From NCBI GenBank assembly GCA_937974275.1, contig CALJIF010000041.1, positions 36,498-100,497 on the forward strand: a DNA stretch of 64,000 bases, written 5' to 3'. Under the pieces are notes generated by a model. That model saw only the letters and a program-made list of their open reading frames with translations, was not told the DNA's origin and searched no databases. This DNA is from an uncultured Flavobacteriales bacterium. GTDB taxonomy: Bacteria > Bacteroidota > Bacteroidia > Palsa-965. Of the stretch, positions 2,155 through 46,380 are shown piece after piece (position 1 is the stretch's first letter; the number at the start of each line of letters is the position of its first letter). Made by a program: the position numbers and the translations under genes.

Positions 2155-2220
2155 TTCAAACGGTTCATTTTTCTTAATAAAAACATAACAAACTTCGGTC
2201 TTCGGTTTCAAAATTTGAGT

Positions 2221-2228
2221 TAATTTTG
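2221..2228 (+). promoter_or_regulatory. Candidate Bacteroidota -7 promoter element (TAnnTTTG) upstream of the LTD gene
   Basis: Exact match TAATTTTG to the Bacteroidetes sigma-A -7 consensus, about 120 nt upstream of the ATG at 2349. The position is unusually far upstream, so confidence is low. Confidence 0.25.
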
Positions 2229-2348
2229 CTATCGTCTTAAGTGAACATCCTCTCCGGAGTTGCGTCTGCAACCGTCCGAAACCGCTTAAGAACGTTCAAT
2301 GCTAAATTGCATTTAACGCGGACACACAACAGTTTAAATTATACACAC

Positions 2349-3278
2349 ATGAAAAAAGCTCTACTGGCTCTTGCTGCGTTTGGTTTTATGGGAACAACCC
2401 AAGCGCAAACTACAGGTTGTAACGAATTATTCTTCTCAGAATATGTAGAAGGTTCTTCTCACAGCAAAGCACTTGAAATTTACAACCCAACCGCTAACCC
2501 GGTTAATCTGAACAACTATCGTTTAGTGCGTTACAGCAATGGATCTCCAACCGGTGTTGATAGCATAGCTTTGGTTGGAACTATTCCTTCTCGCGATGTT
2601 TGGGTGGTAGTGAACGGACAAGCAACACCGGATCAGAATGGCGCATTTTGTGATCCGGCTCTGATTGCATTGGGTGATCAGGTTGGTCCTGCGAACTATG
2701 CCAATGGCACAGCAGTGTTATACTTTAATGGTGATGATGCTATCGTTTTAGTGCGCATTCAGCCTTACGCAATTATCGACATTTTCGGAAAAATCGGCGA
2801 AGATCCCGGCGTATCATGGTCCGATGTATTCCCTTATACTGATGCCCAAGGCGCTTGGTGGACTCGTGATCATACGTTAATTCGTAAATCAACCGTTACA
2901 TCAGGTGTTACCGTAAATCCAACTGCATTTAACGTTACTGCAGAATACGATTCTTTACCTGAAAACACATGGACTAATTTAGGTCAGCACGATTGCGCTT
3001 GTAACACGGTGGGAATTGCAGAGAATGTAGCTAACGGTAAAGTAACTGTATTCCCGAACCCTGCTAATGGTCAAATTAATGTAGTTGCCGGCGTGAATAT
3101 CACTGATGTTACCATCTACAACGTACTTGGTCAGTCTGTTTTAGTTAAAGATTACGATGCTGCTGAACAAAAGACTGCACAAAAGATTGATTTAACCGGT
3201 TTCGCTCCGGGCGTGTACATGGTTGAAGTAAAAACTGCGAACGGAAAAGTGCAGGTAATTAAGATTACCCAGCGCTAA
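2349..3278 (+). CDS. Secreted lamin-tail-domain (LTD) protein with a type IX secretion C-terminal sorting domain
   Basis: Internal start MKKALLALAAFGFMGTTQAQ gives a clean signal peptide (track ORF 2241-3278). LTD-like core CNELFFSEYVEGSSHSKALEIYNPTANPVNLNNYRL. The C-terminus (VTVFPNPANGQINV ... VYMVEVKTANGKVQVIKI) is typical of a T9SS C-terminal domain. Confidence 0.7.
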   Translation: MKKALLALAAFGFMGTTQAQTTGCNELFFSEYVEGSSHSKALEIYNPTANPVNLNNYRLVRYSNGSPTGVDSIALVGTIPSRDVWVVVNGQATPDQNGAFCDPALIALGDQVGPANYANGTAVLYFNGDDAIVLVRIQPYAIIDIFGKIGEDPGVSWSDVFPYTDAQGAWWTRDHTLIRKSTVTSGVTVNPTAFNVTAEYDSLPENTWTNLGQHDCACNTVGIAENVANGKVTVFPNPANGQINVVAGVNITDVTIYNVLGQSVLVKDYDAAEQKTAQKIDLTGFAPGVYMVEVKTANGKVQVIKITQR

Positions 3279-3308
3279 TATCAAGAAGCTATACCCGCAC
3301 AAACCTGA

Positions 3309-3342
3309 AAAATGCTGATGGATCGTCATCAGCATTTTTTCT
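3309..3342 (+). terminator. Rho-independent terminator after the LTD gene
   Basis: aaaatgctgatg-gatcgt-catcagcatttt followed by TTTTCT. Confidence 0.6.
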
Positions 3343-3353
3343 GAACCTGTATT

Positions 3354-6230: not shown

Positions 6231-6262
6231 TAATCATTGATACGTCAATTAATTACACACAC

Positions 6263-8452: not shown

Positions 8453-8478
8453 GGTCGGATAAAGCTCTTAAAAATGTT

Positions 8479-8512
8479 AAAATGCGTCTCTTCGGAGGCG
8501 CATTTTATTTTT
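8479..8512 (+). terminator. Rho-independent terminator after the nuclease gene
   Basis: aaaatgcgtctc-ttcg-gaggcgcatttt followed by ATTTTT. Confidence 0.6.
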
Positions 8513-8667
8513 CACTAATACCTGAATAACAAGACATTACGCTTCTTTAGCCTTGCGATAAGGAGTTATAAACAATGTCGTGTGGCTCAAATTTTACTTG
8601 TTTTTTTGGTTTGAAACCTTAATTTAGCGCGTCTTAAAAAATAGAACAGTCTTCAACACACTACAAT

Positions 8668-9894
8668 TTGCATATAATCCGATATATCCCCCTGTTGTTC
8701 CTGTTGGTTTTATTAACCGGAACATTATCCGGCTTTAGACCGGGAGATCCTCCGGCTGCAGTTCGGGCGGAACTTGCTGTAAATGATACAGCGGAAGCAA
8801 CAGACGATCATCCTACAATAACTTCGGACACCTCAGGACCTGCCACTGCGACAATTGCAGTAACTGATCCTCCGGCAAAGAAAACAACCACAGAACCGGA
8901 TCACGACGAAGAAGGTCATGTTCACGGTGATGAAGAAGAGGATGATTTTGACACTACCTCCGTTCACATGGAGAAGTTTGATGCTCTGGCATTCAACGAT
9001 ACGGTTATGTTGTTGTTGAATGATCCTCAACATTGCGGATATGTTCATCCGTTTAATGGCTATGTTACTTCTAACTTTGGATTCAGAAAATCCCGCTATC
9101 ACTTTGGCGTTGACATTAAGTTAAATACAGGTGACTCCGTAGTTAGTTGCTTTGACGGCAAAGTGCGCATTGCTCAATACAGTAAAACGTATGGCAATTT
9201 GGTTGTTGTTCGTCACGCGAATGGACTGGAAACGTATTACGCACACTTATCCAAACTTTTGGTAAAAGTTGGAGATGATGTTGAAGCCGGAACTCTTGTT
9301 GGACTTGGCGGAAACACAGGTCGTTCGTTCGGAGCGCATTTGCATTTCGAAGTGCGTTACAAAGGACAGCCGATCAACCCGAACTACATTATTGATTTCG
9401 AAAAGAAATGTATTCGTACTAACGCTTATCCGCTTTGCAAATCTGATTTCAAGTATTTATCAGAAACACACAAAGTGGTGCGTCGTTCCCGAAAGAGTAA
9501 AAAGACGTATGTAACGTATTATACTCCGGGCGGTCCAAAATACGCCACTAAAGAAGCAAAAGCGATCATGGCTGTAGTTCCTGATCCAGTGATGCCTAAT
9601 ACGGATCCCAATTTGGTTCCTGACGGTTCTAAGACGCCTATTCAGGTTAAACCTCAACCTACACCAACAACATCCAACCCCAATACAGGTGTTAAGCCGG
9701 CTCCGAACGGTAAAACAACAACACCACCTGCCAATAAATCAGGTGCAGGAGCAAAAACATATGTGGTGAAAAAAGGCGACACCTTGGGAGCTATTGCTGC
9801 ACGTAATAACACAACAGTCGACAAGTTGTGCCAATTAAACGGGATCAAGAAGACTGCAATTCTTCAGATTGGTCAGAAGCTTCGCGTGAAGTAA
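8668..9894 (+). CDS. M23 family metallopeptidase with a C-terminal LysM domain
   Basis: HFGVDIKLNTGDSV...GNTGRSFGAHLHFEVRYKG is an M23 motif. C-terminal YVVKKGDTLGAIAARNNTTVDKLCQLNGIKKTAILQIGQKLRV is LysM. A Pro/Thr-rich linker lies between them. Confidence 0.8.
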   Translation: MHIIRYIPLLFLLVLLTGTLSGFRPGDPPAAVRAELAVNDTAEATDDHPTITSDTSGPATATIAVTDPPAKKTTTEPDHDEEGHVHGDEEEDDFDTTSVHMEKFDALAFNDTVMLLLNDPQHCGYVHPFNGYVTSNFGFRKSRYHFGVDIKLNTGDSVVSCFDGKVRIAQYSKTYGNLVVVRHANGLETYYAHLSKLLVKVGDDVEAGTLVGLGGNTGRSFGAHLHFEVRYKGQPINPNYIIDFEKKCIRTNAYPLCKSDFKYLSETHKVVRRSRKSKKTYVTYYTPGGPKYATKEAKAIMAVVPDPVMPNTDPNLVPDGSKTPIQVKPQPTPTTSNPNTGVKPAPNGKTTTPPANKSGAGAKTYVVKKGDTLGAIAARNNTTVDKLCQLNGIKKTAILQIGQKLRVK

Positions 9895-9899
9895 TTCCG

Positions 9900-12023
9900 T
9901 TACATTACGAAATCCTTTTCCTTCCACTGAAACTGCCTTGATCGAGCATTATAGTAAGCGAACTTACTATTTCGTTCCACGCGGTAAATTGTACCCGATA
10001 CGAGCGCTATCTTGTCCCAAACAGGCTGTAGTAAAATAGTACCCGATACGTCTGCAAGTCCTTTGCCGGAATCAGACTCAAGAGCTAAATAATTTGTAGC
10101 GATGTGATCAATACTGTTGTATGTGGCGGGCAAAATCCATTTACCACGCGCATCAATACAACCCACCAAACCATCTTTGCGAACACGCGCAACACCATCA
10201 GTGAATGACCATGCGTATTCATAATCGTAAGGGATTACCAGCTTCACCTGTTGATCAATAAATCCCCATTTTCCTTTCTTCTTTATCGGACAACGATTGT
10301 CAGCGAAAAAACCGACATCTTCATATTCTCTCGCTAGCACCGACTTGCCTGCCGTATCTATGATTCCCAATTTATTTTCAAGCAGGACTTTTGCGGTGCC
10401 GTGTTTGAATGAATTATCCCCTAACAACGCGCGATTATAATCGTACTTCATAGGAATTACCAATTCACCTGCACGATTGATATAACCGCAACTACCGTCT
10501 TGCACAACCAATGCACGATTATCACTGAACTCACCAATGAACTCATACTCGCATGCAGTAATGTACTTGCCTTCAGTATCTATTAATCCGAACAAATCGT
10601 TCTTCTGAACACGAGCAATTCCATTATTGAATTTGCCAACCCATTCATAAATAGTCGGAACTACTATTTTCCCGTAACGATCAATAAAACCGTAACCTGT
10701 GGAATCTTCTACGTACGCCAATCCTCCTGAAAAATCACCGCCCTTTTCGAACATGCAGCGTACCACTTCTTTCCCGGTTTGATCAATGTAACCGTGCTTA
10801 CCATTTCGCTCAACTCCTGCTCTGCCTTCAGAGAACTCGTAAATGGCATCATATTCAACCGGAACAATTAAAAATCCGGCTTTGTCTACAAGACCGAATT
10901 TCCGATTCAACTCTACAACAGCAACGCCTTTTCGAAATGAACTAACTTCATCATATTGAACCGGCACTAATAATTTGTTGCGCTTATTGATAAAACCGGC
11001 TTTCCCGTTTTTGCCAACTGCCGCCGCCCCTTCCTGAAAAACTTCAACCCATTCGTACTCACATGGAATTAGCACAGCTCCTGTGCTATCCGCAAAGCCC
11101 CAAAGTCCGTCTTCGCGTACCGGAAAAAATTCCGTCATCGACAAACGCAGATCTTCCGTTATCGTTTCTTTAAACGGAAAGTCAGGGTAATCAATCCAAA
11201 ATTGTGCAATGGTAGTTGAGGAACCATCCGCGGTGTACAAGCTGTATAACTTCATCCAGGCCTCGTCTCTATTACGATTGGTGGGATGTTTTCGGATAAA
11301 GGCACGGTAAGAATCAATATCCATTCCGCCCACAGACAATTTAAAAACGGCATCCTCTGCAACTCCTCGATACGGGCTTTCGGGATATTCAGCAACAAAA
11401 ATTTCATATGCCATTAATGAGCTATCCGCGGTTTTCGTTTCAAATAATACGCGATCGTAACGCGATTGGGCTTCCGAAAACAATAAGGACTTTGGATAAC
11501 GAAGCATAAAGTCATTATACGCCTCGTACGAATTAATTTTTTCCGCATCACGAAAAGCAAATGCATCACGGTTAACGATTGCAACAGAATCCCATCGCGA
11601 ATTGCAATGAATTTCGAGATAATTCTCCATCGCGGCCACTGTCGCTGTTTGCAAGGCTTGGGCTAATGCAACGGAATCAATTTGTGCTTCTAAATTTTTA
11701 ATAGCATTAAAATCAACACCCAACTTCAGCAAACGTTTTTTTTGTGCAGAAGAACTATTGGGATAAGAAAATTTCGCGGACAAGATTTGATTATGCGCAC
11801 GCGTATTATCCGAAAACGGGTTATCTCTTCGATGATAAATCAGCGCAAGACCATAACCACTTCCGGCCGGTTGACGCTTACTGCATTGTTGTAATAGTTT
11901 CCGTGCTTTGAAATAATCGTAACGTTCCAATGCATCGTAAGCGCGCTCTAATGTCCCGGCAAAAACACGAGAGGCACAGACAAGGAAACAAATTACAATT
12001 ACGATACGATTAAGCACGTCCAA
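9900..12023 (-). CDS. Large secreted WG-repeat (KWG) containing protein
   Basis: 707 aa. Signal peptide. The C-terminal two-thirds consists of more than 10 tandem WG repeats (…WGFADSTGAVLIPCEYEWV…, KFGLVDKAGFLIVPVEYDAI…, KHGYIDQTGKEVV…). Confidence 0.75.
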   Translation of the reverse strand: MDVLNRIVIVICFLVCASRVFAGTLERAYDALERYDYFKARKLLQQCSKRQPAGSGYGLALIYHRRDNPFSDNTRAHNQILSAKFSYPNSSSAQKKRLLKLGVDFNAIKNLEAQIDSVALAQALQTATVAAMENYLEIHCNSRWDSVAIVNRDAFAFRDAEKINSYEAYNDFMLRYPKSLLFSEAQSRYDRVLFETKTADSSLMAYEIFVAEYPESPYRGVAEDAVFKLSVGGMDIDSYRAFIRKHPTNRNRDEAWMKLYSLYTADGSSTTIAQFWIDYPDFPFKETITEDLRLSMTEFFPVREDGLWGFADSTGAVLIPCEYEWVEVFQEGAAAVGKNGKAGFINKRNKLLVPVQYDEVSSFRKGVAVVELNRKFGLVDKAGFLIVPVEYDAIYEFSEGRAGVERNGKHGYIDQTGKEVVRCMFEKGGDFSGGLAYVEDSTGYGFIDRYGKIVVPTIYEWVGKFNNGIARVQKNDLFGLIDTEGKYITACEYEFIGEFSDNRALVVQDGSCGYINRAGELVIPMKYDYNRALLGDNSFKHGTAKVLLENKLGIIDTAGKSVLAREYEDVGFFADNRCPIKKKGKWGFIDQQVKLVIPYDYEYAWSFTDGVARVRKDGLVGCIDARGKWILPATYNSIDHIATNYLALESDSGKGLADVSGTILLQPVWDKIALVSGTIYRVERNSKFAYYNARSRQFQWKEKDFVM

Positions 12024-23012: not shown

Positions 23013-23048
23013 AAAGGGCGAACCGTGATGTTCGCCCTTTATTTATTT
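23013..23048. terminator. Bidirectional rho-independent terminator
   Basis: aaagggcgaac-cgtgat-gttcgcccttt followed by ATTTATTTT, immediately after the stop of the minus-strand gene 23048-24499. Confidence 0.65.
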
Positions 23049-24499
23049 TACTTCTTTCTTGTCAGCGCAAATACAATTAGTGCGGTGGTTGCGATTGTCA
23101 TTAAATAAGCTGAGAATGGCGTTTGCTGAGATTCAGATGTTGTCGGAGTGAAATTAGCCGGAGGAGCGATGGAACCTTGATCCGCTTTTTTTCCCTTCAA
23201 ATAACGATTGTATTCAGCCGGATAAGAACGATGCTTTTCAATATCACGACCTGTTAACCACTGGTAAGTCCACATTTCATTCCAACGACGCTGTCCTAAA
23301 TCACGCACATACTTTTGTCCTTCTTCACAATCGAACTCGCCCGTTGCAGGATTCGTCAGTACGTAACGAGCCTGGTAGTTTTGCTTGTTCGGTGTTTCCT
23401 GGAACATTAAATCCTGTGGAAAGTTCACACGATCGTAGGTTACGTGTAAACGCGTGTAATACGCCTGCCCGGTAACACCGCCCCATTGATTAGCAACCAG
23501 CCAATCCACTCCGGCCTGCTGGAATTCTGCAAACATTGGAGGAGGACCAACGCATGGGTCGCATTTCATTCCTGCATTCAAACTCACATCCCAAGCGTAT
23601 TCCAGGAACACTACATTTTTTCCTTCGCGCTTCCACGCACGGTTGTACAGGTCACGATAAAATTCACCAAACTCTTCGCGAACAAATAAAGGAACATTAT
23701 AATTCGTTGGCACCAATGCCGTACGGTAGTTTGTTGTCTCAATTCGCCCTGATTTAGAGAACGCATGCACTATCATATCCTGAGGTCCGTTAGCGTTAGC
23801 CATTCCCAAACGAATCGGCAACATAAATCGTGGAGACTCGAAAGAAATTTGCAATGGACGTAAAGGCACTGAACCCGCGGCTTTGTGCTGGTCCATATTC
23901 ACCTTCACCACAAAAAACTTCATATTATTTTTGATATACGGATCTAGCACTTCTTTCGCGCCTTCAGGGATTTTGTAGCCGTTATCCGTCAACCACATTT
24001 CCAATCCGTTCGATTCTTTAGCAGATAGAATAAGTATATCATACTCACCAACATTATATTTCGCTTCGATAGTTACTTTATAATCCTTCTTCTCCTCTAT
24101 TTCCATATTTTTCATACCGGCACTCTCTTGTCTGCTGGAAGGCACTGCGGCAATAGCCACATCATCGTAGGCATAATTCCAACACGGATTTTGGTCGTAA
24201 TATTCTACTAGTCTCGGTGCAGAATACGCGTCCAACTTATCGAACAAGAGGCGATCGACCACTTTAATATCTTTCTCCTGTAATACAACAGGCACAGGAA
24301 CCACCATTGCAAAATCTTTTACATCACCCTGAAAGTCGGACGACATAGTTATGGTGTTTTTGTCGCCATTGCGAACGATAATCACTTGTGAGGTTTTGTT
24401 GAACAGTTTCGTATCCGCCTTTGCGACATAAAATCCGCAGAATGCATATAAGGAAGCAACTCCTGTGATTAATGCGATTGAAAATAATATACGTTTCAT
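23048..24499 (-). CDS. Hypothetical exported protein with an N-terminal signal peptide and a single C-terminal TM anchor (possibly DUF2330-like; family assignment uncertain)
   Basis: 483 aa. MKRILFSIALITGVASLYAF N-terminal signal. C-terminal ...TPFSAYLMTIATTALIVFALTRKK is a hydrophobic helix plus a basic tail. No catalytic motif recognised. Confidence 0.55.
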   Translation of the reverse strand: MKRILFSIALITGVASLYAFCGFYVAKADTKLFNKTSQVIIVRNGDKNTITMSSDFQGDVKDFAMVVPVPVVLQEKDIKVVDRLLFDKLDAYSAPRLVEYYDQNPCWNYAYDDVAIAAVPSSRQESAGMKNMEIEEKKDYKVTIEAKYNVGEYDILILSAKESNGLEMWLTDNGYKIPEGAKEVLDPYIKNNMKFFVVKVNMDQHKAAGSVPLRPLQISFESPRFMLPIRLGMANANGPQDMIVHAFSKSGRIETTNYRTALVPTNYNVPLFVREEFGEFYRDLYNRAWKREGKNVVFLEYAWDVSLNAGMKCDPCVGPPPMFAEFQQAGVDWLVANQWGGVTGQAYYTRLHVTYDRVNFPQDLMFQETPNKQNYQARYVLTNPATGEFDCEEGQKYVRDLGQRRWNEMWTYQWLTGRDIEKHRSYPAEYNRYLKGKKADQGSIAPPANFTPTTSESQQTPFSAYLMTIATTALIVFALTRKK

Positions 24500-36635: not shown

Positions 36636-37235
36636 ATGAAAAAGCTACTTATTCTTCCATTTTTGTTTATCGCGGCGGTAACCGTAAAGGCTCAAGGTCC
36701 TGTAACATCGGCACCAATTGACAATCCAACTGCGCCTAACATGTCATTTGATCAAAAAGAACACAAGTTTGGCACGATCAAGCAAGGCGAATCCGTTACT
36801 TATGAATTCAAATTCACCAATACAGGCAAAGAACCGTTGATCATTACAAATGCACAGGGATCTTGCGGATGCACAGTTCCTGAATACCCGAAAGAACCAA
36901 TTAAGCCAAACGGTAACGGCACAGTTAAAGTTACTTTTAACTCCACCGGCAAAATGGGCCCACAGGACAAGACGGTAACATTAACTTACGACAACGGTCG
37001 CACAGAAACATTGCACATGATCGGAACGGTTGAGGCTGCAAACACCCAGGCTCCTGCTGCTGCTCAGCCTGCTGCTGCTCCTGCCGGAAAAACAACTGCT
37101 CCTGCCGGAAAAACAACTGCTCCTGCTAACAATAGCAAGGCTACTCCGGCTCCTTCCTCAAAAACAACTGCTCCGGCTGCTAAGCCTGCGACTCCGGCCG
37201 CTAAGCCTGCACCTGCATCTAAACCAAAAAACTAA
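36636..37235 (+). CDS. DUF1573 domain secreted protein (paralogue 1 of 4) with Ala/Pro/Thr/Lys-rich C-terminal tail
   Basis: Signal peptide. Core KFGTIKQGESVTYEFKFTNTGKEPLIITNAQGSCGCTVPEYPKEPIKPNG. The tail carries a perfect 21-nt tandem repeat (APAGKTT x2). Confidence 0.7.
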   Translation: MKKLLILPFLFIAAVTVKAQGPVTSAPIDNPTAPNMSFDQKEHKFGTIKQGESVTYEFKFTNTGKEPLIITNAQGSCGCTVPEYPKEPIKPNGNGTVKVTFNSTGKMGPQDKTVTLTYDNGRTETLHMIGTVEAANTQAPAAAQPAAAPAGKTTAPAGKTTAPANNSKATPAPSSKTTAPAAKPATPAAKPAPASKPKN

Positions 37236-37259
37236 TTTAAAATTCATTTTATTTCAGTC

Positions 37260-37787
37260 ATGAAATCATTAGTTACTTCAATTGCAATCTTCGGATTGGC
37301 GGTATCGGTTGCTGCGCAAGCTCCGGCAAAGCCGACTCCTACAGCTAAACCTGCTCCTGCTGCGAAACCCGCTCCTGCTGCAAAGCCAACTGCGGGCGAA
37401 CAAAAAGGTGATAATGGTTATAAATTCGATAAAACGGTTCACGACTACGGTACAATTAAAAAAGGTGCGGATGGAACTTGCGAATTTAAAATCACCAACA
37501 CCAGCAAAGAGCCTTTAGTGATACAGTCGGCTGTAGGAAGCTGCGGTTGCACTGTTCCTAAATATGATAAAGAGCCAATTATGCCCGGTAAAAGCACAGT
37601 AATCACTGTAAAGTACGACACTAACCGTGTAGGACCTTTCACTAAAGAAGTTACTGTAATGTTCGAAGGCAAGCCTGAACCGGCTAAAGTTCAAATTAAA
37701 GGTAACGTTGAAGCTCCTCCTGCAGACACCCCGTTCCCGGCTCCGGGTTCAGGTGCTCCGGGTTCAGGCGCTCCGGTAAATAACTAA
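37260..37787 (+). CDS. DUF1573 domain secreted protein (paralogue 2) with N- and C-terminal low-complexity Ala/Pro/Lys linkers
   Basis: DYGTIKKGADGTCEFKITNTSKEPLVIQSAVGSCGCTVPKYDKEPIMPGK. KPAPAA and PGSGA tandem microrepeats. Confidence 0.7.
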   Translation: MKSLVTSIAIFGLAVSVAAQAPAKPTPTAKPAPAAKPAPAAKPTAGEQKGDNGYKFDKTVHDYGTIKKGADGTCEFKITNTSKEPLVIQSAVGSCGCTVPKYDKEPIMPGKSTVITVKYDTNRVGPFTKEVTVMFEGKPEPAKVQIKGNVEAPPADTPFPAPGSGAPGSGAPVNN

Positions 37788-37791
37788 CAAA

Positions 37792-38223
37792 TTGAAATAC
37801 ATTTTCAATATAGCATTCCTACTAGTTGCGGGCTTGTCTGTGCTTCACGGACAAGCCCCTTCTGCAACTGTGAGTGGCCCGGTGATCACATTCCAAGAGG
37901 TTGTGGTAGATTACGGCACTATCTCCCAAGGTAGTGAAGCGGTTCGCGTATTTACATTTACAAATACCGGCAACGAACCATTGGTCATTTCTTCAATCAA
38001 AGGTCAGTGCGGATGCACCAGTATCGGTGACAGTTGGAACAAACAACCTATTCCTCCGGGAGGAACCGGAACATTTTCTGTTAAATACGATACTTCCATC
38101 CGGGTTGGACAATTCGAAAAAAAAATCATGGTGTATTCCAATGCAACCAATGGAACGGGAGGAATTGTAGAAGTACGCGTTAAGGGTAATGTACTACCGG
38201 CCGGAGTTCCAATACCGAAATAA
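37792..38223 (+). CDS. DUF1573 domain secreted protein (paralogue 3)
   Basis: DYGTISQGSEAVRVFTFTNTGNEPLVISSIKGQCGCTSIGDSWNKQPIPPGG. Starts 4 nt after paralogue 2. Confidence 0.7.
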   Translation: MKYIFNIAFLLVAGLSVLHGQAPSATVSGPVITFQEVVVDYGTISQGSEAVRVFTFTNTGNEPLVISSIKGQCGCTSIGDSWNKQPIPPGGTGTFSVKYDTSIRVGQFEKKIMVYSNATNGTGGIVEVRVKGNVLPAGVPIPK

Positions 38224-38231
38224 TTTTTCAA

Positions 38232-38633
38232 ATGGCACAGAAAATAAAAGCATATGGTGGTTTAATCGCAGTTATGTGCATTGTGATCTTGAGTACTGCC
38301 ATGATTGCCGGTGCTGCACTAACATTTGAAGAAACCAAACACAATTTCGGGATGATTCGTCAGGGCGAAGTTGTCTCGCATGATTTTAAATTTACGAATA
38401 CCGGCGATGCACCTTTGATTATCAGTGACGCTGTTGTTACCTGCACCTGTACAAAAGTTGATTTCCCCAAACAGCCTATAGCCAAAGGAGAATCAGGCGT
38501 TGTAAAAGTTACTTTTGAATCGAAAAGTGCTATTGACCGCCAAGAAAGAGCTGTGGTTATAAAATCCAACGCTATTAAGCCTGAAACTACACTTACGATC
38601 AAATGTGTAGTGCTTAAACCAAAAGGCGAATAA
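38232..38633 (+). CDS. DUF1573 domain protein (paralogue 4; N-terminal TM anchor, CGC replaced by CTC)
   Basis: NFGMIRQGEVVSHDFKFTNTGDAPLIISDAVVTCTCTKVDFPKQPIAKGE. Confidence 0.65.
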   Translation: MAQKIKAYGGLIAVMCIVILSTAMIAGAALTFEETKHNFGMIRQGEVVSHDFKFTNTGDAPLIISDAVVTCTCTKVDFPKQPIAKGESGVVKVTFESKSAIDRQERAVVIKSNAIKPETTLTIKCVVLKPKGE

Positions 38634-40013: not shown

Positions 40014-40514
40014 ATGTACAAAAAAAACCTCTCAGCAGCGGCTTTGGCGTTGTGCATTACTGCGTTTTCGCAGGCACAATCAATTGCCCCAAGCGTCATT
40101 TCGAGTGGTGGTGAATTCTTTTCGAATTCTTCCGGTATGATAGAATGGACCGTTGGTGAACCGATGATTGAAACGTACTCTGCGAGTGGTTTCTTTATCA
40201 CTCAAGGTTTTCATCAGCCCGAGGATGTTAACTCTTCAATTGGAGAGACCGGCATTCCCGTAAACGCGTCCGTTTATCCTAACCCCACCACTGACTTTGT
40301 CAACATTCAATTTGGAGAAGACGTATCCGGTCTTTTCGTAATTGATGTTTACAATGCTCTCGGTCAGCGTATGCAGACCGAACAATTTTCGGCTTCTTCA
40401 TCAGGCAGAACTCAAATTAACCTAAGCGGTTACGCTACCGGAGTGTATTTCATTCAGGTACGTGCTGTAAATGGTAAGGCAAACACCACATTCAAAATCA
40501 CTAAAAATTCTTAA
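40014..40514 (+). CDS. Small secreted protein consisting of a short N-terminal module plus a T9SS C-terminal sorting domain
   Basis: Signal peptide. The C-terminal ~85 aa are T9SS-C-terminal-domain-like (VYPNPTTDFVNIQF...GVYFIQVRAVNGKANTTFKITK). Confidence 0.6.
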   Translation: MYKKNLSAAALALCITAFSQAQSIAPSVISSGGEFFSNSSGMIEWTVGEPMIETYSASGFFITQGFHQPEDVNSSIGETGIPVNASVYPNPTTDFVNIQFGEDVSGLFVIDVYNALGQRMQTEQFSASSSGRTQINLSGYATGVYFIQVRAVNGKANTTFKITKNS

Positions 40515-40526
40515 CCCATCCACTTT

Positions 40527-42440
40527 ATGAAAAAAGTATATACACTGGTTGCTGCGTTGATGTTAGCCTGGGGCGTTTATGCTCAGGCACCAGCCAGTAT
40601 CAAGTACCAGGGTGTAGCTCGTAACTCAACTGGAGCACCAATTGCTAACGGCACAATCACGGTACAATTTGATATTCACAGCGGTTCTGCTTCAGGCCCT
40701 GTAGTATGGACAGAAACTCACACAGGTGTTACAACCAACCAGTTTGGTTTGTTCAACATCAACATGGGTTCGATCACCGCAGGTTTAGATACTGTATTCT
40801 CTGCAGGTCAGGAATTTTTGGAAGTATCCGTTGACTTCGGTACAGGTTTAACTTCCATGGGAACTTCACAGTTCTTATCAGTTCCTTATGCATTGTACGC
40901 ACAAAACTCAGCGAATCCGGGTCCACAAGGTCCTGCAGGTCCACAAGGTCCTTCAGGTGATCCTGGCGTTGCAGGTCCAACTGGTCCTTCAGGTGATCCG
41001 GGCTTGACAGGTCCAACAGGTCCTCAGGGCGATCCGGGAATTGCAGGTCCGACAGGTGCAACAGGTGACACAGGTCCTACAGGAGCAGTTGGCGCAACAG
41101 GTGATATCGGACCAACAGGAGCGCAAGGTCCTATTGGATTAACAGGTGCAACGGGTCCGCAAGGAGCTAACGGGGCGACCGGGGCAACCGGTGCAGCTGG
41201 AGCTAACGGAGCAACCGGTCCGGTTGGTCCTACAGGTTTAACAGGTGCTGCGGGTCCTGCAGGTCCTACCGGTGCTAATGGAGCTAACGGTGCAACGGGT
41301 GCTACAGGAGCTACAGGTGTTACAGGTCCAACAGGCCCGGGCGGCGTAACAGGAACAACAGGTTACCATCCTAAGTTCCTTTCGGCTAACACACTTGGTA
41401 ACTCTATCATGCAAGAGAACACGAATGGTAACATTGGTGTTAATATTTCACCACTAATCCAGTATCGCATGTACGTTTATTCTCAACAATTGACAGCAAA
41501 CGGTGATGGACAAACTACATTGTTTGGCTATCGTACGCGCGACTCCCAAAACGACGGAACAGGTTATGCGCAGTCTGTAGCAAACGACGCTACTCGCGGA
41601 TTCAACTTCTGGGGTGACCTCTATACATTTGGCGTTGGTGGTTGGAACTATAACGACTACACTCGTTGCGGTGGTACATTAGGTGCCGAAGTTTCAGGAA
41701 CCTATTGGGGCTCTATGGGCTACAGAAGTTCAGGATTGCTGAATTATGGTGTTTATGGAACGTCTGCTTACGCTAACGGTGGTGGTCGCATGGCGAACGG
41801 CAACTTCAATGGTATTGGTGGCGCATTCTACGGCGATATGATGGGTGGTTGGGTTCGCGGTGATATCGCAGGTTTAACTACTATGGGTTCTATGTATGCT
41901 GCTTTGAACGTAGGTAACACATACAACTACGGTTACCATGCAGATCTTGTGAACACAGGTGCTGCTATCACTCCTGCTTACGCGGTTACTTCTACTACTG
42001 TAAAAGTATACGACGACGGTTCCGCTCAATTGAACAACGGCACTATTCGTGTAAACTTTACTCCTGAATACGCTGCATTAATTAAAGGAAACGGTAAGCC
42101 GACTATTACTGTTACTCCACAGGGTCAGTGCAACGGTTTGTACATTGTTTCTGTTGACGAAAACGGTTTCAACGTAGCTGAATTGAATAACGGTTCATCT
42201 AATGTTGAATTCTCTTGGATCGCTGTTGGTAAGCGTGTTGACGCTGCACAGAACAGCACTCCTGAGCAGTTGACAAACCGTAACTTCGCTGAAAACATTC
42301 AGGGTGTTATGTTCAATGAAGGTAACACTTCACAGTCCGGAACTCCAATGTTCTGGAATGGTACTAGCTTCCAGTTCACTCCTGCTCCTGTTGCTCCGAA
42401 AGGGCCAAAAATTGAGCCGGGCGTAGCTCCTAGAAACTAA
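40527..42440 (+). CDS. Collagen-like triple-helix repeat protein with a Bacteroidota adhesin/tail-fibre-like N-terminal domain and a Gly/Tyr/Asn-rich C-terminal domain
   Basis: Signal peptide. N-domain [41 protein letters not shown].... About 50 uninterrupted G-X-Y triplets ([28 protein letters not shown]...), then a ~360-aa G/Y/N-rich region. Confidence 0.8.
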
Positions 42441-42494: not shown

Positions 42495-42621
42495 ATGCAA
42501 GCAAAACGCATTTGTAAGATTATTAGTCTTACAAATCACAATGGCGATAATTGCATGACATTAACAATGCATCACGGCACTACTTTTGCTCTCTACCTTT
42601 GTCTCATTTAGGACGCAATCA

Positions 42622-43542
42622 ATGAAGCAACTTATTCTTTTTATTTCTGCTTGCATTGCTCAAATCTGCACAGGTCAATCTGTTGCACCAACCGTTAGCA
42701 CCTCATACTTCCAATATGTCGTACAAACTCTTGCGCATGATTCAATGCAAGGTCGCTTACCGGGAACACATGAGGAAAAAGTTGCAGCGAATTTCATCGC
42801 ACAAGAATTTCAAAAGGCCGGTTGCGCTCCTGTAAAAGAGAATCAATGGCTATTCCCCTTCACCTATGTAAACCCGGACACCGCTCTCGTTCAATCAGCA
42901 GGAAATGTAATTGGTAAAATAGAAACCAAACATAAAAAGTGCATCGTTGTATCTGCTCATTATGACCATATCGGTTACGGCAAATTCCACTCCAAGGATC
43001 CGTTCTCCAGAAAAATTCATAACGGAGCAGATGATAATGCCAGCGGTGTTGCCATGATGTTAGGACTCGCGGCTTATTGTAAAACCAAAATCGACCAACT
43101 TCAGTATGACGTCATCTTTGTCGCATTCTCCGGAGAAGAAGATGGTCTTTGGGGTGCACTAGCATTACTACAGCAAAATATCATTGATACGTCAACAATT
43201 GTTGCAAACATTAATTTGGACATGGTAGGTCGCTTAGATATACTAACGCCTATTTTGGAAATTCAAACCAAACACGCAGGTTCCTGTATTTTCCAAGTTG
43301 CACAAACAGTTAAGTCGGATAAATTCAAAACAATTGTTGCGGAAGACAAAGTGCGCTTCGGCTCAGACCATGCTATTTTTAATGAAAACAGGATTCCTGC
43401 GATACTCGTTTCTACCGGACTTGGCAGTCACTACCACCGCCCCAGCGATGATGCCGCGACCATCAACTATAGCGGCATGATGGCTATCGCTGCGGAAATT
43501 CAAAAACTTATTCTAAACGGAGAACTACTCCGTTGTCAGTAA
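42622..43542 (+). CDS. M28 family zinc aminopeptidase (secreted)
   Basis: Signal peptide MKQLILFISACIAQICTG. HYDHIGYG, GADDNASGVAMML, FSGEEDGLWGA are M28 metal-ligand motifs. Confidence 0.75.
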   Translation: MKQLILFISACIAQICTGQSVAPTVSTSYFQYVVQTLAHDSMQGRLPGTHEEKVAANFIAQEFQKAGCAPVKENQWLFPFTYVNPDTALVQSAGNVIGKIETKHKKCIVVSAHYDHIGYGKFHSKDPFSRKIHNGADDNASGVAMMLGLAAYCKTKIDQLQYDVIFVAFSGEEDGLWGALALLQQNIIDTSTIVANINLDMVGRLDILTPILEIQTKHAGSCIFQVAQTVKSDKFKTIVAEDKVRFGSDHAIFNENRIPAILVSTGLGSHYHRPSDDAATINYSGMMAIAAEIQKLILNGELLRCQ

Positions 43543-45107
43543 ACAATAATTTGTTTAGACTTTCGGGAAGTACCTGTATTCAGGCTAATCGTATAGGTGC
43601 CCGCAGGCATATCTGCAGTCGCAATTTCCATACGATACATTCCTGCACCTTGAGCTCCTCTATTCCACTCTTTAACCAAACGCCCATTTTGATCAAACAG
43701 TTGTAATACTACCGAACTATTCTGAGGAATGAAATAACTCACATTAACAGGAGTATTACCCGCTGTCGGAACAGGGTAAGGATCGTATAACTGAGGTGTT
43801 CGAATAATGTTCTGATAGGCGTTTTGTTGAACAGAATTCAATACTACGCTATCAATAATTATATTTTCATCACCTGCCTGATAAGGCAAATACGCGTAAT
43901 AGATCACCATCATTTCATCATCCGTAGCTTCGCCCGCAGTAACCAATTGCGGAGGATTATTCGGATTGTTCGGATTATTCGCAGTGTTGTCGTAATACGC
44001 ACTTGCATAAACCACGCTGTTTCCGGGAATCACGACAGGCTGCCGGTAAGTGTAAAATCCTTGCCAGTGAAAATTCCAATCAGGAATACTGATCAATGGT
44101 ATGGTATCTCCGGATGGATCTACAGCCCATGACCAAATCGACTTACCGATCAAATGCATGTGCGGAGCAACACTTATCAATGTTAAAGGTGAAGAGACAG
44201 CCACCTGCGCGTTAAACGTACGCGTTGTATTCGCAGGAATAACAAGAGGTCCATTGGTTAATGATGTGGTGTGATTGATAGCCGGCGCTAAAGTCACATT
44301 ACGAACTACTCCGCTTGAAAAAGTAAATCGCACATGAGTACTGTCGGTCTGATTAAACGTACCGGACGGATAATGAATTTGCATAATGATGTAACTGTTC
44401 GCTTCCAGTTTGATACCCATATTTGGCGGCAGTTCATAAACACCTTGACCAGGAACCCAACCCGCTATAAGTGTTGCAGTATTTGAACCTACACCACCAA
44501 AACTGGTATACCCCGGCCCCGGATCATTATTATCCAATGTCACGCAAGTATTCTGCACATCCTGATACACGAGCACGTGGTGTACAATCGGTCTGTTTCC
44601 CGGAACAACTTCAACTTTAGTTATGTATTCATCTTGCGTAATACCTGATGGTACAACAAAACAACGGTACAAATCTGTGGCAGTATTCACGGTGTACGTT
44701 TGCATTTGAGCAGACAAATCCGGATTCGTAATAGCTGGTCCTGCTGTATAAGTTGGCGCCGGCGGAGCATTCGCAATGTTTCCCGATGGAAATCCTGCAG
44801 TTACCCAATTATCAATCGTTGTTATTTCCTGCTGTGTTAAAGCTCGTTCATGGGCAAATCTGGTATATGCGGTATCAGGAGGCCATGGCGGCATTCTGCG
44901 CATAGTTACCGCATTCTGAATATTTGGTGCAACATTAGCTGCATCGTTATAGGTAATCAATGAAAATGGTGCAATACCGCCCGGATGGTGACAATTGGTA
45001 CATTTCCCGTAAAGAATATTCGCCACATCATCTGCCCATGTCGGACTCTGAGCATCTACAGTAGAAGCAATAGTTGCAAGAACAGCAACGAGTAAAAACT
45101 TTTTCAT
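43536..45107 (-). CDS. Secreted copper type II ascorbate-dependent monooxygenase-like (PHM/DBH-like) protein with an N-terminal CxxCH motif and a T9SS C-terminal domain
   Basis: CuH-like IVHHVLVY + MQIHYP. CuM-like APHMHLIGKS + EATDDEMMVIYYAY (compare PHM HTHHLGK and TTDEMC). NFHWQGFY is also PHM-like. N-terminal ILYGKCTNCHHPGG. C-terminal T9SS domain (SVVLQLFDQNGRLV...GTYTISLNTGTSRKSKQIIVY). Confidence 0.65.
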   Translation of the reverse strand: MKKFLLVAVLATIASTVDAQSPTWADDVANILYGKCTNCHHPGGIAPFSLITYNDAANVAPNIQNAVTMRRMPPWPPDTAYTRFAHERALTQQEITTIDNWVTAGFPSGNIANAPPAPTYTAGPAITNPDLSAQMQTYTVNTATDLYRCFVVPSGITQDEYITKVEVVPGNRPIVHHVLVYQDVQNTCVTLDNNDPGPGYTSFGGVGSNTATLIAGWVPGQGVYELPPNMGIKLEANSYIIMQIHYPSGTFNQTDSTHVRFTFSSGVVRNVTLAPAINHTTSLTNGPLVIPANTTRTFNAQVAVSSPLTLISVAPHMHLIGKSIWSWAVDPSGDTIPLISIPDWNFHWQGFYTYRQPVVIPGNSVVYASAYYDNTANNPNNPNNPPQLVTAGEATDDEMMVIYYAYLPYQAGDENIIIDSVVLNSVQQNAYQNIIRTPQLYDPYPVPTAGNTPVNVSYFIPQNSSVVLQLFDQNGRLVKEWNRGAQGAGMYRMEIATADMPAGTYTISLNTGTSRKSKQIIVY

Positions 45108-45168
45108 AGGTTGAATTTGAATACAAGTTACCGTATTTGCTAGTTGGACGCAAACCGAAGCGAATGGT

Positions 45169-46380
45169 TTAATTGAAATCCGGATACAGGAGATATTTTA
45201 CACGAATATCACGAAACGCTGACAACCCTGGCTGCCACGATGCCCTGATTTGCTCTTCTGTTTTACCCGAAATAACCTGGTTCCGTAAATTGGAAGTGCC
45301 TGCAAGCTTATCGAAGAAATTATTAAAAAATTCACCTTTCGTCTTCAATTGGTTGTAACTCGCAATCAGCCAATACAAGTACAACGATTTGTAATCTTTG
45401 ATATACAACAAACCAAATTCTCGTAAATCATATCCATTACACAATTGTCCTTCGTACAACGGTTTTTTCGCCCCGGGTTTTGGTAGTGGTGTAAATGAAA
45501 AATGTGTGCCCTGTAATTGCGGATGACCAAACATCTGAAAAGGCGCATCTGTCCCTCGCCCAACGCTTACAATAGTACCCTCAAACAAACACAAAGACGG
45601 ATACAAATACACACTGCTCATGTTCGGCAAATTGGGAGAGGGTTTTATCGGCAATTGATACAAATCATCATGAGTATAATTAATACATGTAATCACTTTC
45701 AAATCACACTTCACACCTCCTGTTAACCACTTTTCGCCATTCACCATTTGTGCATATTCGCCAACTGTCATTCCGTGAACAATTGGAACCGGATGCAGCC
45801 CGACGAAAGACTTGAACGCCGGCTCAAGTATTGGTCCATCCAGGTAATGTCCGTTTGGATTGGGACGATCCAACACAATCATTCTTACGTTATGCTCGGC
45901 GCAGGCTTCCATTACATAAGTCATGGTGGAGATGTACGTGTAAAAACGAACTCCTACATCTTGAATATCGAATAACACGACATCAATCCCTTTCATATCC
46001 TTTGCCGTAGGTTTGCGATGATCACCATACAACGAAATCACAGGTAGCCCGGTGCGTTGATCTTTTCCTGAACCTATTTCTTCACCGTTATCTGCTGTAC
46101 CGCGAAATCCGTGCTCGGGAGAAAATATTTTCACCACTTTAATCTTCCTAGACAATAACGTGTCCACTAAATGCGTAGTACCAACAAACGAAGTATGATT
46201 AGCAACAATCGCCACACGCTTACCGCTTAATTCGGATAGATATTGATCAAAACGAGCTGCACCGACAGTAATATCTTTATCTGTTTTCTCCGCATTTTGC
46301 TTGGCTCGGATTAAAACTTGCGCCGGCAGCTGACTCATCTGCACAACAACCAGTAAGAAGCAAAATAGCACTCGCATCAT
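45169..46380 (-). CDS. DUF1343 family protein (exo-beta-N-acetylmuramidase NamZ-like)
   Basis: 403 aa. Signal peptide. Family-typical KRVAIVANHTSFVG...PEHGFRG...DVVLFDIQDVGVRFYTYISTM. Confidence 0.75.
   Translation of the reverse strand: MMRVLFCFLLVVVQMSQLPAQVLIRAKQNAEKTDKDITVGAARFDQYLSELSGKRVAIVANHTSFVGTTHLVDTLLSRKIKVVKIFSPEHGFRGTADNGEEIGSGKDQRTGLPVISLYGDHRKPTAKDMKGIDVVLFDIQDVGVRFYTYISTMTYVMEACAEHNVRMIVLDRPNPNGHYLDGPILEPAFKSFVGLHPVPIVHGMTVGEYAQMVNGEKWLTGGVKCDLKVITCINYTHDDLYQLPIKPSPNLPNMSSVYLYPSLCLFEGTIVSVGRGTDAPFQMFGHPQLQGTHFSFTPLPKPGAKKPLYEGQLCNGYDLREFGLLYIKDYKSLYLYWLIASYNQLKTKGEFFNNFFDKLAGTSNLRNQVISGKTEEQIRASWQPGLSAFRDIRVKYLLYPDFN

Follow-up and report, generated by a model that had tools for sequence, protein, structure and literature searches.

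The locus lies within a 64-kb stretch of DNA, hereafter referred to as the window, and is centred on an ORF of 523 aa with an ATG start, found in the ORF list on the minus strand, at positions 43536 to 45107 of the window. The features recognized within the ORF and at its borders are listed here, with their positions on the window, strand and supporting evidence.

43536..45107, minus strand: whole ORF (523 aa + stop), with a predicted cytochrome c, a PHM-like copper monooxygenase core and a T9SS sorting domain (Pfam, NCBIfam)
45051..45107, minus strand: predicted Sec signal peptide, aa 1-19 (MKKFLLVAVLATIASTVDA, then QS) (inspection of the sequence; Q20 conservation)
44778..45050, minus strand: predicted monohaem class I c-type cytochrome domain with PccH-like fold, aa 20-110
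44988..45002, minus strand: C36-T-N-C39-H40, predicted covalent haem attachment and proximal His (conservation, cytochrome c6 alignment)
44883..44894, minus strand: M72-P-P-W, predicted distal (sixth) Met haem ligand (conservation, cytochrome c6 alignment)
44721..44777, minus strand: Pro-rich linker from cytochrome to copper core, aa 111-129 (alignment; model pLDDT 70-78)
44313..44720, minus strand: CuH (N-terminal) beta-sandwich domain, aa 130-265 (PF01082, Foldseek, hhalign)
44577..44582, minus strand: H176-H177, CuH ligands equivalent to PHM H107/H108 (conservation; DBH and PHM alignments)
44373..44375, minus strand: H245, third CuH ligand, equivalent to PHM H172 (conservation; DBH and PHM alignments)
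43878..44312, minus strand: CuM (C-terminal, catalytic) beta-sandwich domain, aa 266-410 (PF03712, Foldseek, hhalign)
44154..44162, minus strand: H316-M-H318, CuM ligands equivalent to PHM H242/H244 (conservation; DBH and PHM alignments)
44061..44063, minus strand: Q349 in the NFHWQG block, second-sphere Gln equivalent to PHM Q272 (conservation; PHM and DBH alignments)
43911..43913, minus strand: M399 in D-E-M, CuM thioether ligand equivalent to PHM M314 (conservation; PHM alignment)
43779..43877, minus strand: linker with a nearly invariant G412-D413-E414 motif, aa 411-443 (family alignment, conservation)
43539..43778, minus strand: type A T9SS C-terminal sorting domain, aa 444-523 (PF18962, TIGR04183)
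45108..45168, minus strand: intergenic region of 61 nt, from the NamZ stop to the ATG (sequence read)
45169-46380, minus strand: NamZ neighbour (Pfam search of the window)
42586-43542, plus strand: M28 peptidase neighbour (Pfam search of the window)

An orthologue 92-93% identical to the window protein is found in a Bacteroidia MAG from Lake Mendota (P0001, locus L001). The intergenic region may hold the gene's own promoter, in the form of TTTG-N20-TAACTTGT, an imperfect look-alike of the Bacteroidetes-type -33/-7 arrangement; a scan for sigma-70 promoters and terminators, which does not cover Bacteroidetes promoters, gave nothing above shuffle expectation. The GC content at the gene (0.42-0.43) is the same as in the remaining window and the surroundings are made of core chromosomal genes, such as rpoB, rpoC and valS, which rules out a horizontal-transfer island.

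NamZ and the M28 peptidase are present beside the gene as originally proposed, yet their adjacency does not point to a role. Within 80 related loci, NamZ adjoins 9 and the M28 peptidase 2, all belonging to the closest relatives, so that these neighbours represent local synteny only and are uninformative on function. An unbiased clustering of flanking ORFs, by which a recurrent partner was sought, produced no family present in more than about 10 of the 80 loci, as expected for a self-sufficient enzyme.

The copper monooxygenase core was identified by Pfam profiles Cu2_monooxygen (PF01082; aa 133-247, 44.2 bits against a cut-off of 30, E 2.8e-11) and Cu2_monoox_C (PF03712; aa 305-408, 30.2 bits against a cut-off of 23, E 3.7e-7), found in the right order and each above its gathering threshold. 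The AF2 model reaches a pLDDT of 82 and a pTM of 0.77, with most of the core above 85. When it was compared with the PDB by Foldseek, the top 31 matches were all PHM or human DBH (E 4.7e-13 to 3e-10), with a TM score of about 0.64 normalised to PHM and an identity to PHM of 15-17%. Alignment to rat PHM by hhalign gave a 95% probability (E 2.6e-8, 248 columns), using a PHM sequence that is not database-derived but agrees with the published numbering at all eight landmark residues. In profile searches of the PDB, DBH (4ZEL, E 1e-5) came out best, and its alignment agrees with hhalign on five of the ligand/Gln pairings. With a profile of the C-domain only, the DBH alignment ends short of the Met ligand, because DBH carries a long insert there. 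Profiles were needed, since a single-sequence search of PDB sequences returned nothing relevant.

The reference ligand sets of CuH and CuM, as well as the role of Q272, which hydrogen-bonds to a CuM His, are those described in PMC12164859. Conservation was evaluated on 130 diverse homologues, about 32-54% identical. At CuH, H176 (100%) and H177 (99%) align with DBH 'LVHHMEVFQ' and PHM 'TVHHMLLF', and H245 (98%) with DBH 'EVHYH' and PHM 'LQVHYG'. At CuM, H316 (99%) and H318 (100%) align with DBH 'LHTHLTG' and PHM 'RVHTHHLG', Q349 (98%) with PHM 'LPQAF' and DBH 'HFQEI', and M399 (99%), preceded by an E398 conserved in 100%, with PHM 'SDEMCN'. All ten putative haem and copper ligands are 98-100% conserved, while neighbouring positions vary. 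Such conservation, along with the curated domain scores, indicates more than chance motif matches.

All the motifs quoted in the original prediction are present: ILYGKCTNCHHPGG (aa 31-44), IVHHVLVY (174-181), MQIHYP (242-247), PHMHLIGKS (315-323), NFHWQ (345-349) and EATDDEMMVIYYAY (393-406). The PHM/DBH-type copper core that it proposed is borne out by the Pfam and Foldseek results, and the six His and Met ligands, on whose correspondence to the PHM copper sites the proposal had been made to depend, all align at the level of sequence profiles. By domain architecture, folds, and equivalence and conservation of the ligands, the protein is a bacterial relative of PHM and DBH, within the superfamily of copper type II ascorbate-dependent monooxygenases (PHM/DBH/TBM). 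A pseudoenzyme or an adhesin is ruled out, because every catalytic ligand is strongly conserved over the 130 homologues.

The N-terminal domain is all-alpha, with a cytochrome c-like fold. Its C36-T-N-C39-H40 segment, 98% conserved in the same 130 sequences, aligns with CAACH of cytochrome c6, and M72 and P73, both conserved in 100%, align with MPAW, which carries the axial Met of that protein. A profile search had been suggested as a check of this domain; the query alone stays below the Pfam cut-offs for every cytochrome family (Haem_bd 17-22.4 bits, Cytochrome_CBB3 12-16 bits, both with a cut-off of 27), and 30 of 32 family members match cytochrome profiles at E<=0.1, with distant members reaching 34-37 bits. 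The closest structural relatives are PccH, a protein of electron uptake, and FoxE, an Fe(II) oxidase, the Foldseek matches of the isolated domain being individually non-significant (E >= 0.5). The haem loop (aa 37-49) is modelled at a pLDDT below 50 in the full-length prediction. The assignment of the CxxCH segment to a haem-type domain is retained, while the supposed likeness to PSCyt-type domains gives way to a closer one to PccH and cytochrome c6. The domain is likely a c-type cytochrome, fused on as a probable built-in electron supply. The linker that joins it to the core carries the invariant residues A114, P115 and P118.

Signals for export are found at both ends of the protein. The signal peptide was recognized by inspection, from a basic n-region, a hydrophobic core and an A-to-Q cleavage between VDA and QS. 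In Bacteroidetes, signal peptidase I cleavage leaves as a rule an N-terminal Gln, and the near-invariance of Q20 in the family alignment fits this rule. The T9SS C-terminal domain passes two curated thresholds, as claimed at the outset (Por_Secre_tail, PF18962, 28.3 bits with a cut-off of 27; TIGR04183, 33.9 bits with a cut-off of 23), and the family profile weakly matches the solved Por C-terminal domains 8glk and 8glj in a PDB profile search. Of the 129 full-length representatives of the family, at least 99 carry such a C-terminal domain. Two further T9SS-tailed genes lie within the window (40014-40514 and 6263-8452), implying that the secretion system is present in the organism.

Bacterial members had been described as rare. 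The family, instead, comprises 14,372 cluster representatives at E<=1e-3 and 2,585 clusters (50% identity) at E<=1e-30; it occurs in at least 591 GTDB species representatives, and is very abundant in Bacteroidota. Cytochrome and copper core co-occur across the family while the remaining parts of the protein vary, including Ig/PKD spacers with a T9SS tail, EF-hands, AhpC/TSA-redoxin fusions and tandem duplication of the whole module. This co-occurrence and the invariant residues of the linker lead to reading the two as one functional unit. A homologue search with the cytochrome module only produced mostly short gene fragments of the same family, which are uninformative on other fusion partners of the module.

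In longer paralogues, Ig, PKD and BiPBP_C spacer domains are inserted between core and tail, and in some genomes up to four paralogues form tandem arrays. A T9SS-tailed PQQ glucose/sorbosone dehydrogenase is encoded two genes off in 8 of the 80 loci, all in one subclade, and is absent from the 64-kb window. Distant members are recurrently fused to, or encoded beside, an AhpC/TSA-redoxin-fold protein, which carries CxxS or CxxC thioredoxin-like motifs and no peroxiredoxin active site, ResA being the closest curated family; no redoxin partner for the window gene was found within 64 kb. Two isolated observations concern distant members: a GH44 gene adjoins one of them, and a pair sits inside an NRPS cluster (L084). 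Full-text searches on bacterial PHM/DBH-like enzymes, T9SS-cytochrome-copper combinations and the evolution of PAM in prokaryotes yielded, in the library searched, no paper on the family and none on a bacterial member or its substrate. In the PAM evolution review PMC6529398, the terms 'bacteria', 'prokaryot' and 'cyanobacteri' do not occur.

The reading that we favour, and hold to be reasonably probable, is that the gene product would be a self-contained, secreted haem-copper monooxygenase. We infer haem and copper occupancy, the path from haem to CuH, the surface location and the hydroxylase activity; the steps of export and assembly are drawn from the established biology of each signal, and catalysis from homology to PHM and DBH. 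The Sec signal peptide would bring the protein to the periplasm, where haem would be attached covalently to C36 and C39, with H40 and M72 as axial ligands, and two copper ions would be loaded. The C-terminal domain would then direct the folded protein into the type IX secretion system, and the protein would end up on the cell surface or in the medium. The cytochrome domain would accept electrons one at a time from a donor, either external or periplasmic, and pass them to CuH (H176, H177, H245), thereby replacing ascorbate, the CuH reductant in the animal enzymes. Electrons would move onward to CuM (H316, H318, M399, with Q349 in the second sphere), which would bind O2, abstract H from a C-H bond of the substrate and hydroxylate it.

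Glycine-extended peptides, originally suggested as substrates, are unlikely to play this role. In PHM, R240 forms a salt bridge to the substrate carboxylate (PMC12164859). This anchor, to which N316 and Y318 also belong, is not found in the window protein: R240 aligns with A314, two residues upstream of H316, which is A, F or S in the family, and N316 with V401, which is L, V or I, both being variable non-polar positions. Y318 aligns with Y403, a position occupied by Tyr in only 41% of sequences and by Phe in 35%. The replacement of R240 by a variable residue is the reason for setting these peptides aside, and the substrate is probably an extracellular organic molecule of another kind.

Compared with peptidylglycine alpha-hydroxylating monooxygenase (PHM, EC 1.14.17.3, the catalytic core of PAM; PDB 1PHM, 1SDW, 3MLL), the window protein has the same two-domain beta-sandwich, the His3 set of CuH, the His2Met set of CuM and the equivalent of Gln272, but lacks the R240 and N316 carboxylate anchors. 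A single PHM cysteine, C81, is matched by a Cys in the alignment (C149, which 61% of homologues have); C126, to which C81 is joined by a disulfide in PHM, is without counterpart, so that the C81-C126 bridge is not conserved. PHM, in turn, has no counterpart to the N-terminal cytochrome c domain and the T9SS tail, and works in the secretory granule, whereas the window protein is bacterial, predicted to be extracellular and devoid of a PAL partner.

Dopamine beta-hydroxylase (DBH), tyramine beta-monooxygenase and MOXD1 (4ZEL) offer a different parallel, since in DBH, too, an extra N-terminal domain precedes the copper core. In other proteins, domains of the DOMON type bind haem b, which suggests a parallel logic, with a possible redox domain followed by the core. 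However, the DOMON domain is a beta-sandwich, unrelated to the all-alpha c-type cytochrome of the window protein, in which Pfam found no DOMON match; the DBH/MOXD dimerisation domain is also absent, and there is no indication that the substrate is a phenylethylamine. PccH of Geobacter sulfurreducens (PDB 4RLR), a monohaem c-type cytochrome, is a free periplasmic carrier, whereas the haem domain of the window protein is fused to an oxygenase and predicted to be exported by the T9SS.

Functional analogues, not homologues, are the cellobiose dehydrogenase cytochrome with LPMO and cytochrome b561 with PHM/DBH, where a haem protein delivers single electrons to a mononuclear copper, O2-activating site outside the cytoplasm. 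By this analogy, the fusion would place the same haem-to-copper electron supply within one polypeptide. The folds differ, the haem is b-type there and c-type here, and in those systems the haem protein either stands alone or forms a fusion with a dehydrogenase rather than with the copper enzyme. Closer relatives are the redoxin-cytochrome c-PHM-like proteins of other phyla (such as P0264 and P0216), which have the same module, at 32-40% identity and with all the ligands, and are automatically annotated as AhpC/TSA or 'alkyl hydroperoxide reductase'. Unlike the window protein, they carry or adjoin a domain of thioredoxin fold that resembles ResA/TlpA (ECPxS ... GC), and they either have EF-hands or lack a T9SS tail.

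Other readings were also considered. Environmental Bacteroidota typically use the T9SS for proteins that degrade polymers or are associated with the cell surface, and the protein might accordingly be an oxidative helper whose extracellular substrate is a polymer or is insoluble (polysaccharide, protein, lignin-like or humic material), in analogy to a cytochrome-fed LPMO. The Ig, PKD and BiPBP_C spacers, the arrays with as many as four paralogues, which substrate diversification would lead one to expect, the PQQ dehydrogenase in 8 of 80 loci and the GH44 gene beside one distant member are in line with such a role, to which we nevertheless assign a low probability. No carbohydrate-binding module was detected by Pfam in the query, no PUL-like context was found around the gene, and the dehydrogenase link, limited to one subclade, does not extend to the window. 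Furthermore, PHM-type CuM sites lie in an interdomain cleft, unlike those of LPMOs, which are on a flat surface.

There is also a rather small chance that the protein is mainly an oxidase or electron sink, in which electrons from donors such as Fe(II), reduced humics or a surface redox partner, fed through the haem, would reduce O2 at copper to H2O2 or water, for detoxification, Fe(II) oxidation or peroxide production. The likeness of the haem domain to PccH and FoxE, the recurrent redoxin-fold fusions or neighbours of distant members and the failure of hhalign to find substrate-recognition residues in common with PHM are consistent with it. However, PHM and DBH are tightly coupled and release no reduced oxygen species (PMC12164859), the entire CuM apparatus, with its Met and second-sphere Gln, is retained as it is in the hydroxylases, and the redoxin partners are thioredoxin-like (CxxS/CxxC, ResA closest), not peroxiredoxins.

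The sub-threshold cytochrome scores of the query, the non-significant Foldseek matches and the poorly modelled haem loop would fit a CxxCH without haem, in an N-terminal domain that is structural or metal-binding (a disulfide, a Cu/Zn site), with a small-molecule reductant as in eukaryotes; we regard this as very improbable. The least credible reading is that of a true functional PHM orthologue, hydroxylating the C-terminal glycine of secreted peptides in the first amidation step: fold, copper ligands and second-sphere Gln are in common, Y403 aligns with Y318 and the NRPS location of the L084 pair hints at peptide chemistry in that lineage, but identity is only 15-17%, R240 and N316 are replaced, a Tyr at position 403 is kept in only 41% of the family, and no PAL-like or NHL-repeat lyase partner recurs in the 80 neighbourhoods.

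Starting from the secreted haem-copper monooxygenase, a broader and much more tentative proposal, whose probability we set well below an even chance, can be formulated. The protein would be the first recognized natural fusion between a c-type cytochrome and a noncoupled binuclear copper monooxygenase, defining a huge clade of ascorbate-independent, cell-surface oxygenases that harvest extracellular electrons. The clade would extend over aquatic and soil Bacteroidota, where it is apparently unstudied, with redoxin-linked relatives in other phyla. Its PccH/FoxE-like haem would tap Fe(II), reduced humics or a secreted PQQ dehydrogenase, and recalcitrant dissolved or particulate organic matter would be hydroxylated outside the cell.

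Work on PHM, DBH and TBM, which are textbook copper enzymes, has been confined almost entirely to animals. Both the reduction of CuH and the way in which electrons cross the solvent gap of about 11 A to CuM are contentious (reviewed in PMC12164859). In a natural enzyme whose haem donor, visible by spectroscopy, shares one chain with the copper core, intramolecular electron transfer into CuH could be measured directly, by laser-flash or stopped-flow methods and without ascorbate chemistry. The recurrent thioredoxin-fold partner in other phyla would offer a second route into maturation or electron supply. From an ecological point of view, the family is predicted to be exported by the T9SS in abundant Bacteroidota of freshwater, soil and activated sludge, and the identity of its substrate could reveal an unrecognized extracellular oxidative step in organic-matter turnover.

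The open reading frame was recovered exactly where the original prediction had placed it, and all the motifs quoted there were found in the translated protein. The gene, its product and its surroundings have the following features, with window positions for genes and residue numbers (aa) for the protein; Pfam scores are followed by their cut-offs.

Features of the PHM-like gene, its product and the window
43536-45107, minus: PHM-like gene, ATG start, 523 aa
aa 31-44: motif ILYGKCTNCHHPGG
aa 133-247: Cu2_monooxygen (Pfam, 44.2 bits, cut-off 30)
aa 174-181: motif IVHHVLVY
aa 242-247: motif MQIHYP
aa 305-408: Cu2_monoox_C (Pfam, 30.2 bits, cut-off 23)
aa 315-323: motif PHMHLIGKS
aa 345-349: motif NFHWQ
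aa 393-406: motif EATDDEMMVIYYAY
aa 444-522: Por_Secre_tail (Pfam, 28.3 bits, cut-off 27)
45169-46380, minus: NamZ exo-muramidase gene (PF07075 and PF20732), upstream of the PHM-like gene
42586-43542, plus: M28 peptidase gene, downstream of the PHM-like gene, convergent
6263-8452, plus: T9SS-tailed endonuclease I, 729 aa
9900-12023, minus: 707-aa protein with seven WG beta-repeats
23048-24499, minus: DUF2330 protein

The NamZ and PHM-like genes lie on the same strand, separated by 61 nt. The stop-codon ends of the PHM-like (minus) and M28 (plus) genes overlap convergently by 7 nt (window 43536-43542), which leaves no space there for a terminator common to both. The GC content of the locus, 0.42-0.43, equals that of the remaining window. 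The whole window is unremarkable Bacteroidia chromosomal DNA; it includes rpoB/rpoC, valS, an IcmF-like mutase and further T9SS-tailed genes. Two other gene sets were observed on the plus strand. A small T9SS-tailed ORF of 166 aa (40014-40514) is directly followed by the gene of a 637-aa protein (40527-42440), in which a long stretch of collagen-like Gly-X-Y repeats (PF01391, E 7e-22) is accompanied by a C-terminal part rich in Gly, Tyr and Asn; both are found only in the stretch carrying the closest relative (L001). Four DUF1573 (HYDIN/VesB-like Ig) paralogues of 133-199 aa lie in a row at 36636-38633, and about 8 related loci keep at least two of them beside the aminotransferase gene.

The type A T9SS sorting domain was confirmed by NCBIfam TIGR04183 (33.9 bits, cut-off 23). 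A single-sequence search with the protein found nothing relevant among PDB sequences. The AlphaFold2 model (pLDDT 82, pTM 0.77, core mostly above 85) was compared with the PDB by using Foldseek, and the top 31 matches were only PHM and human DBH, with E values from 4.7e-13 to 3e-10 and TM scores of about 0.6-0.65, normalised to PHM. The family profile matched DBH among PDB sequences (E 1e-5), pairing the family HH with "LVHHMEVFQ", "QVHY" with "EVHYH", "PHMHLIG" with "LHTHLTG" and "FHWQG" with "PHFQE"; this alignment ends ahead of the Met ligand, as does that of a profile restricted to the C-terminal half of the core. For the Met ligand, the family alignment was compared by hhalign with a rat PHM catalytic-core sequence not taken from a database. 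Its residue numbering agrees with all the published landmarks, H107, H108, H172, R240, H242, H244, Q272 and M314 (PMC12164859), and it can thus be trusted at the positions of interest.

The comparison gave 95% probability and E 2.6e-8 over 248 aligned columns. At the N-terminal His3 site (CuH), H176/H177 correspond to PHM H107/H108 and H245 to H172; at the C-terminal, catalytic His2Met site (CuM), H316/H318 correspond to H242/H244 and M399 to M314, while Q349 corresponds to Q272. The copper ligands, whose failure to superimpose on those of PHM would have argued against the original prediction, thus coincide at the level of profile alignment. Conservation was evaluated on a 33-sequence alignment and on 130 cluster representatives at 32-54% identity: it reaches 100% for H176, 99% for H177 and 98% for H245 in CuH, 99% for H316, 100% for H318 and 99% for M399 in CuM, and 100% and 98% for E398 and Q349. 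Judged from its sequence and modelled fold, the protein carries all the features examined that define the PHM/DBH superfamily. Directly after the CuM domain, Y409 and G412-D413-E414 (aa 411-414 correspond to window 43866-43877) are nearly invariant, with a family-wide conservation of 87-95% in the 130 sequences; this motif has no counterpart inside the PHM alignment. The copper core would be expected to work like that of PHM or DBH. An LPMO-like role on polymers and a role as oxidase or electron sink are less likely rival readings of the protein.

In the N-terminal region of the query, Haem_bd and Cytochrome_CBB3 gave sub-threshold Pfam matches. Over the 130 sequences, conservation is 98% at C36, C39 and H40 and 100% at M72-P73, inside an MPPW motif. 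When the 32 members of an alignment of this domain alone were scanned one by one, 30 matched Cytochrome_CBB3 (best E 5e-6), 28 Haem_bd, 14 Cytochrom_C and 6 PccH; distant relatives pass the Cytochrome_CBB3 cut-off, with 34-37 bits against 27. The PDB matches of the domain profile are each weak, yet mostly cytochromes, including cytochrome c6, CcoP and the haem domain of hydrazine synthase alpha; in the cytochrome c6 alignments CxxCH stands opposite CAACH, and MPPW opposite MPAW, which contains the axial Met. The domain is closest to PccH, a Geobacter monohaem cytochrome of low potential (-35 mV), tied to electron uptake from electrodes (PMC13591261). A non-haem CxxCH is an unlikely rival reading of these data; the domain is a predicted monohaem c-type cytochrome with His/Met ligation.

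Activity on glycine-extended peptides had been suggested for the protein. In PHM, R240 forms a salt bridge to the C-terminal carboxylate of the peptide (PMC12164859). This residue aligns to A314, a position occupied by A, F or S throughout the family; N316 falls opposite V, L or I, and Y318 opposite Y403, where 41% of the sequences have Y and 35% have F. No recurrent PAL-like partner was found in the neighbourhoods of 80 Bacteroidota loci. The protein belongs to the PHM/DBH superfamily without being an orthologue of PHM, from which it differs by the lack of the carboxylate anchor, as it does from DBH by the lack of a DOMON domain. Glycine-extended peptides are, on these alignments, unlikely substrates, and a true peptide-amidating function is unlikely because R240 is missing.

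Cytochrome and copper core, about 400 aa, behave as a single unit in evolution. The Bacteroidota versions of this module continue into a T9SS tail (at least 99 of 129 full-length representatives), at times after Ig, PKD or BiPBP_C spacers. In distant members, among whose neighbours are PSCyt1/PSD1 proteins, an AhpC/TSA-redoxin-fold domain is joined to the module, or the module is tandemly duplicated or closed by EF-hands. Whether fused or encoded separately, the redoxins belong to a single thioredoxin-fold subfamily, marked by ECP[LIV][SA], GRIDD and a C-terminal GC; of 6 distant loci whose flanks were adequate, 4 contain it.

Distant members with fused or adjacent redoxins (positions within each stretch)
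L081: 4062-5891
L082: 4171-7926, 11284-13308 and 13308-15188
L083: 1314-1874 with 1950-3458
L084: 5582-6205 with 6228-11195

Among the 80 Bacteroidota loci, a redoxin lies directly upstream in one only (L041, 5424-5966, full CPMC motif). The closest curated family is ResA, a thiol-disulfide oxidoreductase of cytochrome c maturation, with a weak match. The subfamily may serve specifically in haem or copper maturation, or else act as a redox partner.

No neighbour family occurs in more than about 10 of the 80 loci. The NamZ and M28 genes do adjoin the PHM-like gene, as originally remarked, but this is uninformative, being lineage-specific synteny (9/80 and 2/80 loci, respectively). A T9SS-tailed PQQ-dependent glucose/sorbosone dehydrogenase (PF07995 and PF18962) is encoded two genes upstream in 8/80 loci (L010, L011 at 545-2479, L012, L017, L024, L030, L038 and L042), whose PHM-like proteins are 54-73% mutually identical; no homologue was found in the window. 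The enzyme is a candidate extracellular electron source, and its placement may be plain synteny.

A word-indexed search at E<=1e-5 retrieved over 3,600 homologues, of which the best 120 are all about 520 aa long, share the same architecture and come from Bacteroidia/Bacteroidota MAGs; their names include "hypothetical" and "T9SS type A sorting domain-containing protein", with "Copper type II ascorbate-dependent monooxygenase" and "mono/diheme cytochrome c family protein" appearing once each. A 93% identical orthologue occurs in a Lake Mendota Bacteroidia MAG. Searched exhaustively, the representatives of 50%-identity clusters gave 14,372 clusters at E<=1e-3, 7,846 at E<=1e-10 and 2,585 at E<=1e-30, and relatives lie in at least 591 stretches of GTDB species representatives. 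Bacterial members had been supposed to be rare, a premise which these numbers show to be wrong. Among the GTDB matches listed, most are from uncultured Chitinophagales, Flavobacteriales and Saprospiraceae of lakes, sludge and soil, the sole cultured strain being Flavipsychrobacter stenotrophus RB1R16.

The sequence family itself is not unknown, since databases already carry its domain annotations. Full-text searches found no paper on bacterial members or on the cytochrome-copper fusion, and in a review of PAM evolution (PMC6529398) the terms "bacteria", "prokaryot" and "cyanobacteri" are all absent from the text. The architecture, the abundance and the likely ascorbate-independent mechanism of the family appear undescribed. 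CDH-LPMO and cytochrome b561-PHM/DBH would offer a functional parallel, by analogy, for the supply of electrons from haem to copper, whereas here a single polypeptide and a c-type haem are involved.

From the established biology of the parts, the protein would be exported by Sec, receive haem and copper in the periplasm, and be carried by the T9SS to the surface or medium. The fusion, together with PHM/DBH chemistry, suggests that haem c would take the place of ascorbate as one-electron donor to CuH; electrons would pass on to CuM, which would bind O2 and hydroxylate some extracellular compound, probably other than peptidyl-glycine, at a C-H bond. In one distant locus (L084, 435-19195), a tandem pair of cytochrome c-PHM-like genes, for a 584-aa protein and a 1064-aa double module with EF-hands, is flanked together with a redoxin gene by NRPS genes (condensation, adenylation, PCP, thioesterase and sulfotransferase domains), a single observation hinting that a non-ribosomal peptide may be tailored in the periplasm of that organism. 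Some genomes carry two to four full-length cytochrome c-PHM-like-T9SS paralogues in tandem (L058, 6001-12605; L061, 3222-6331; L064, 4357-7581), which suggests substrate diversification within the family.
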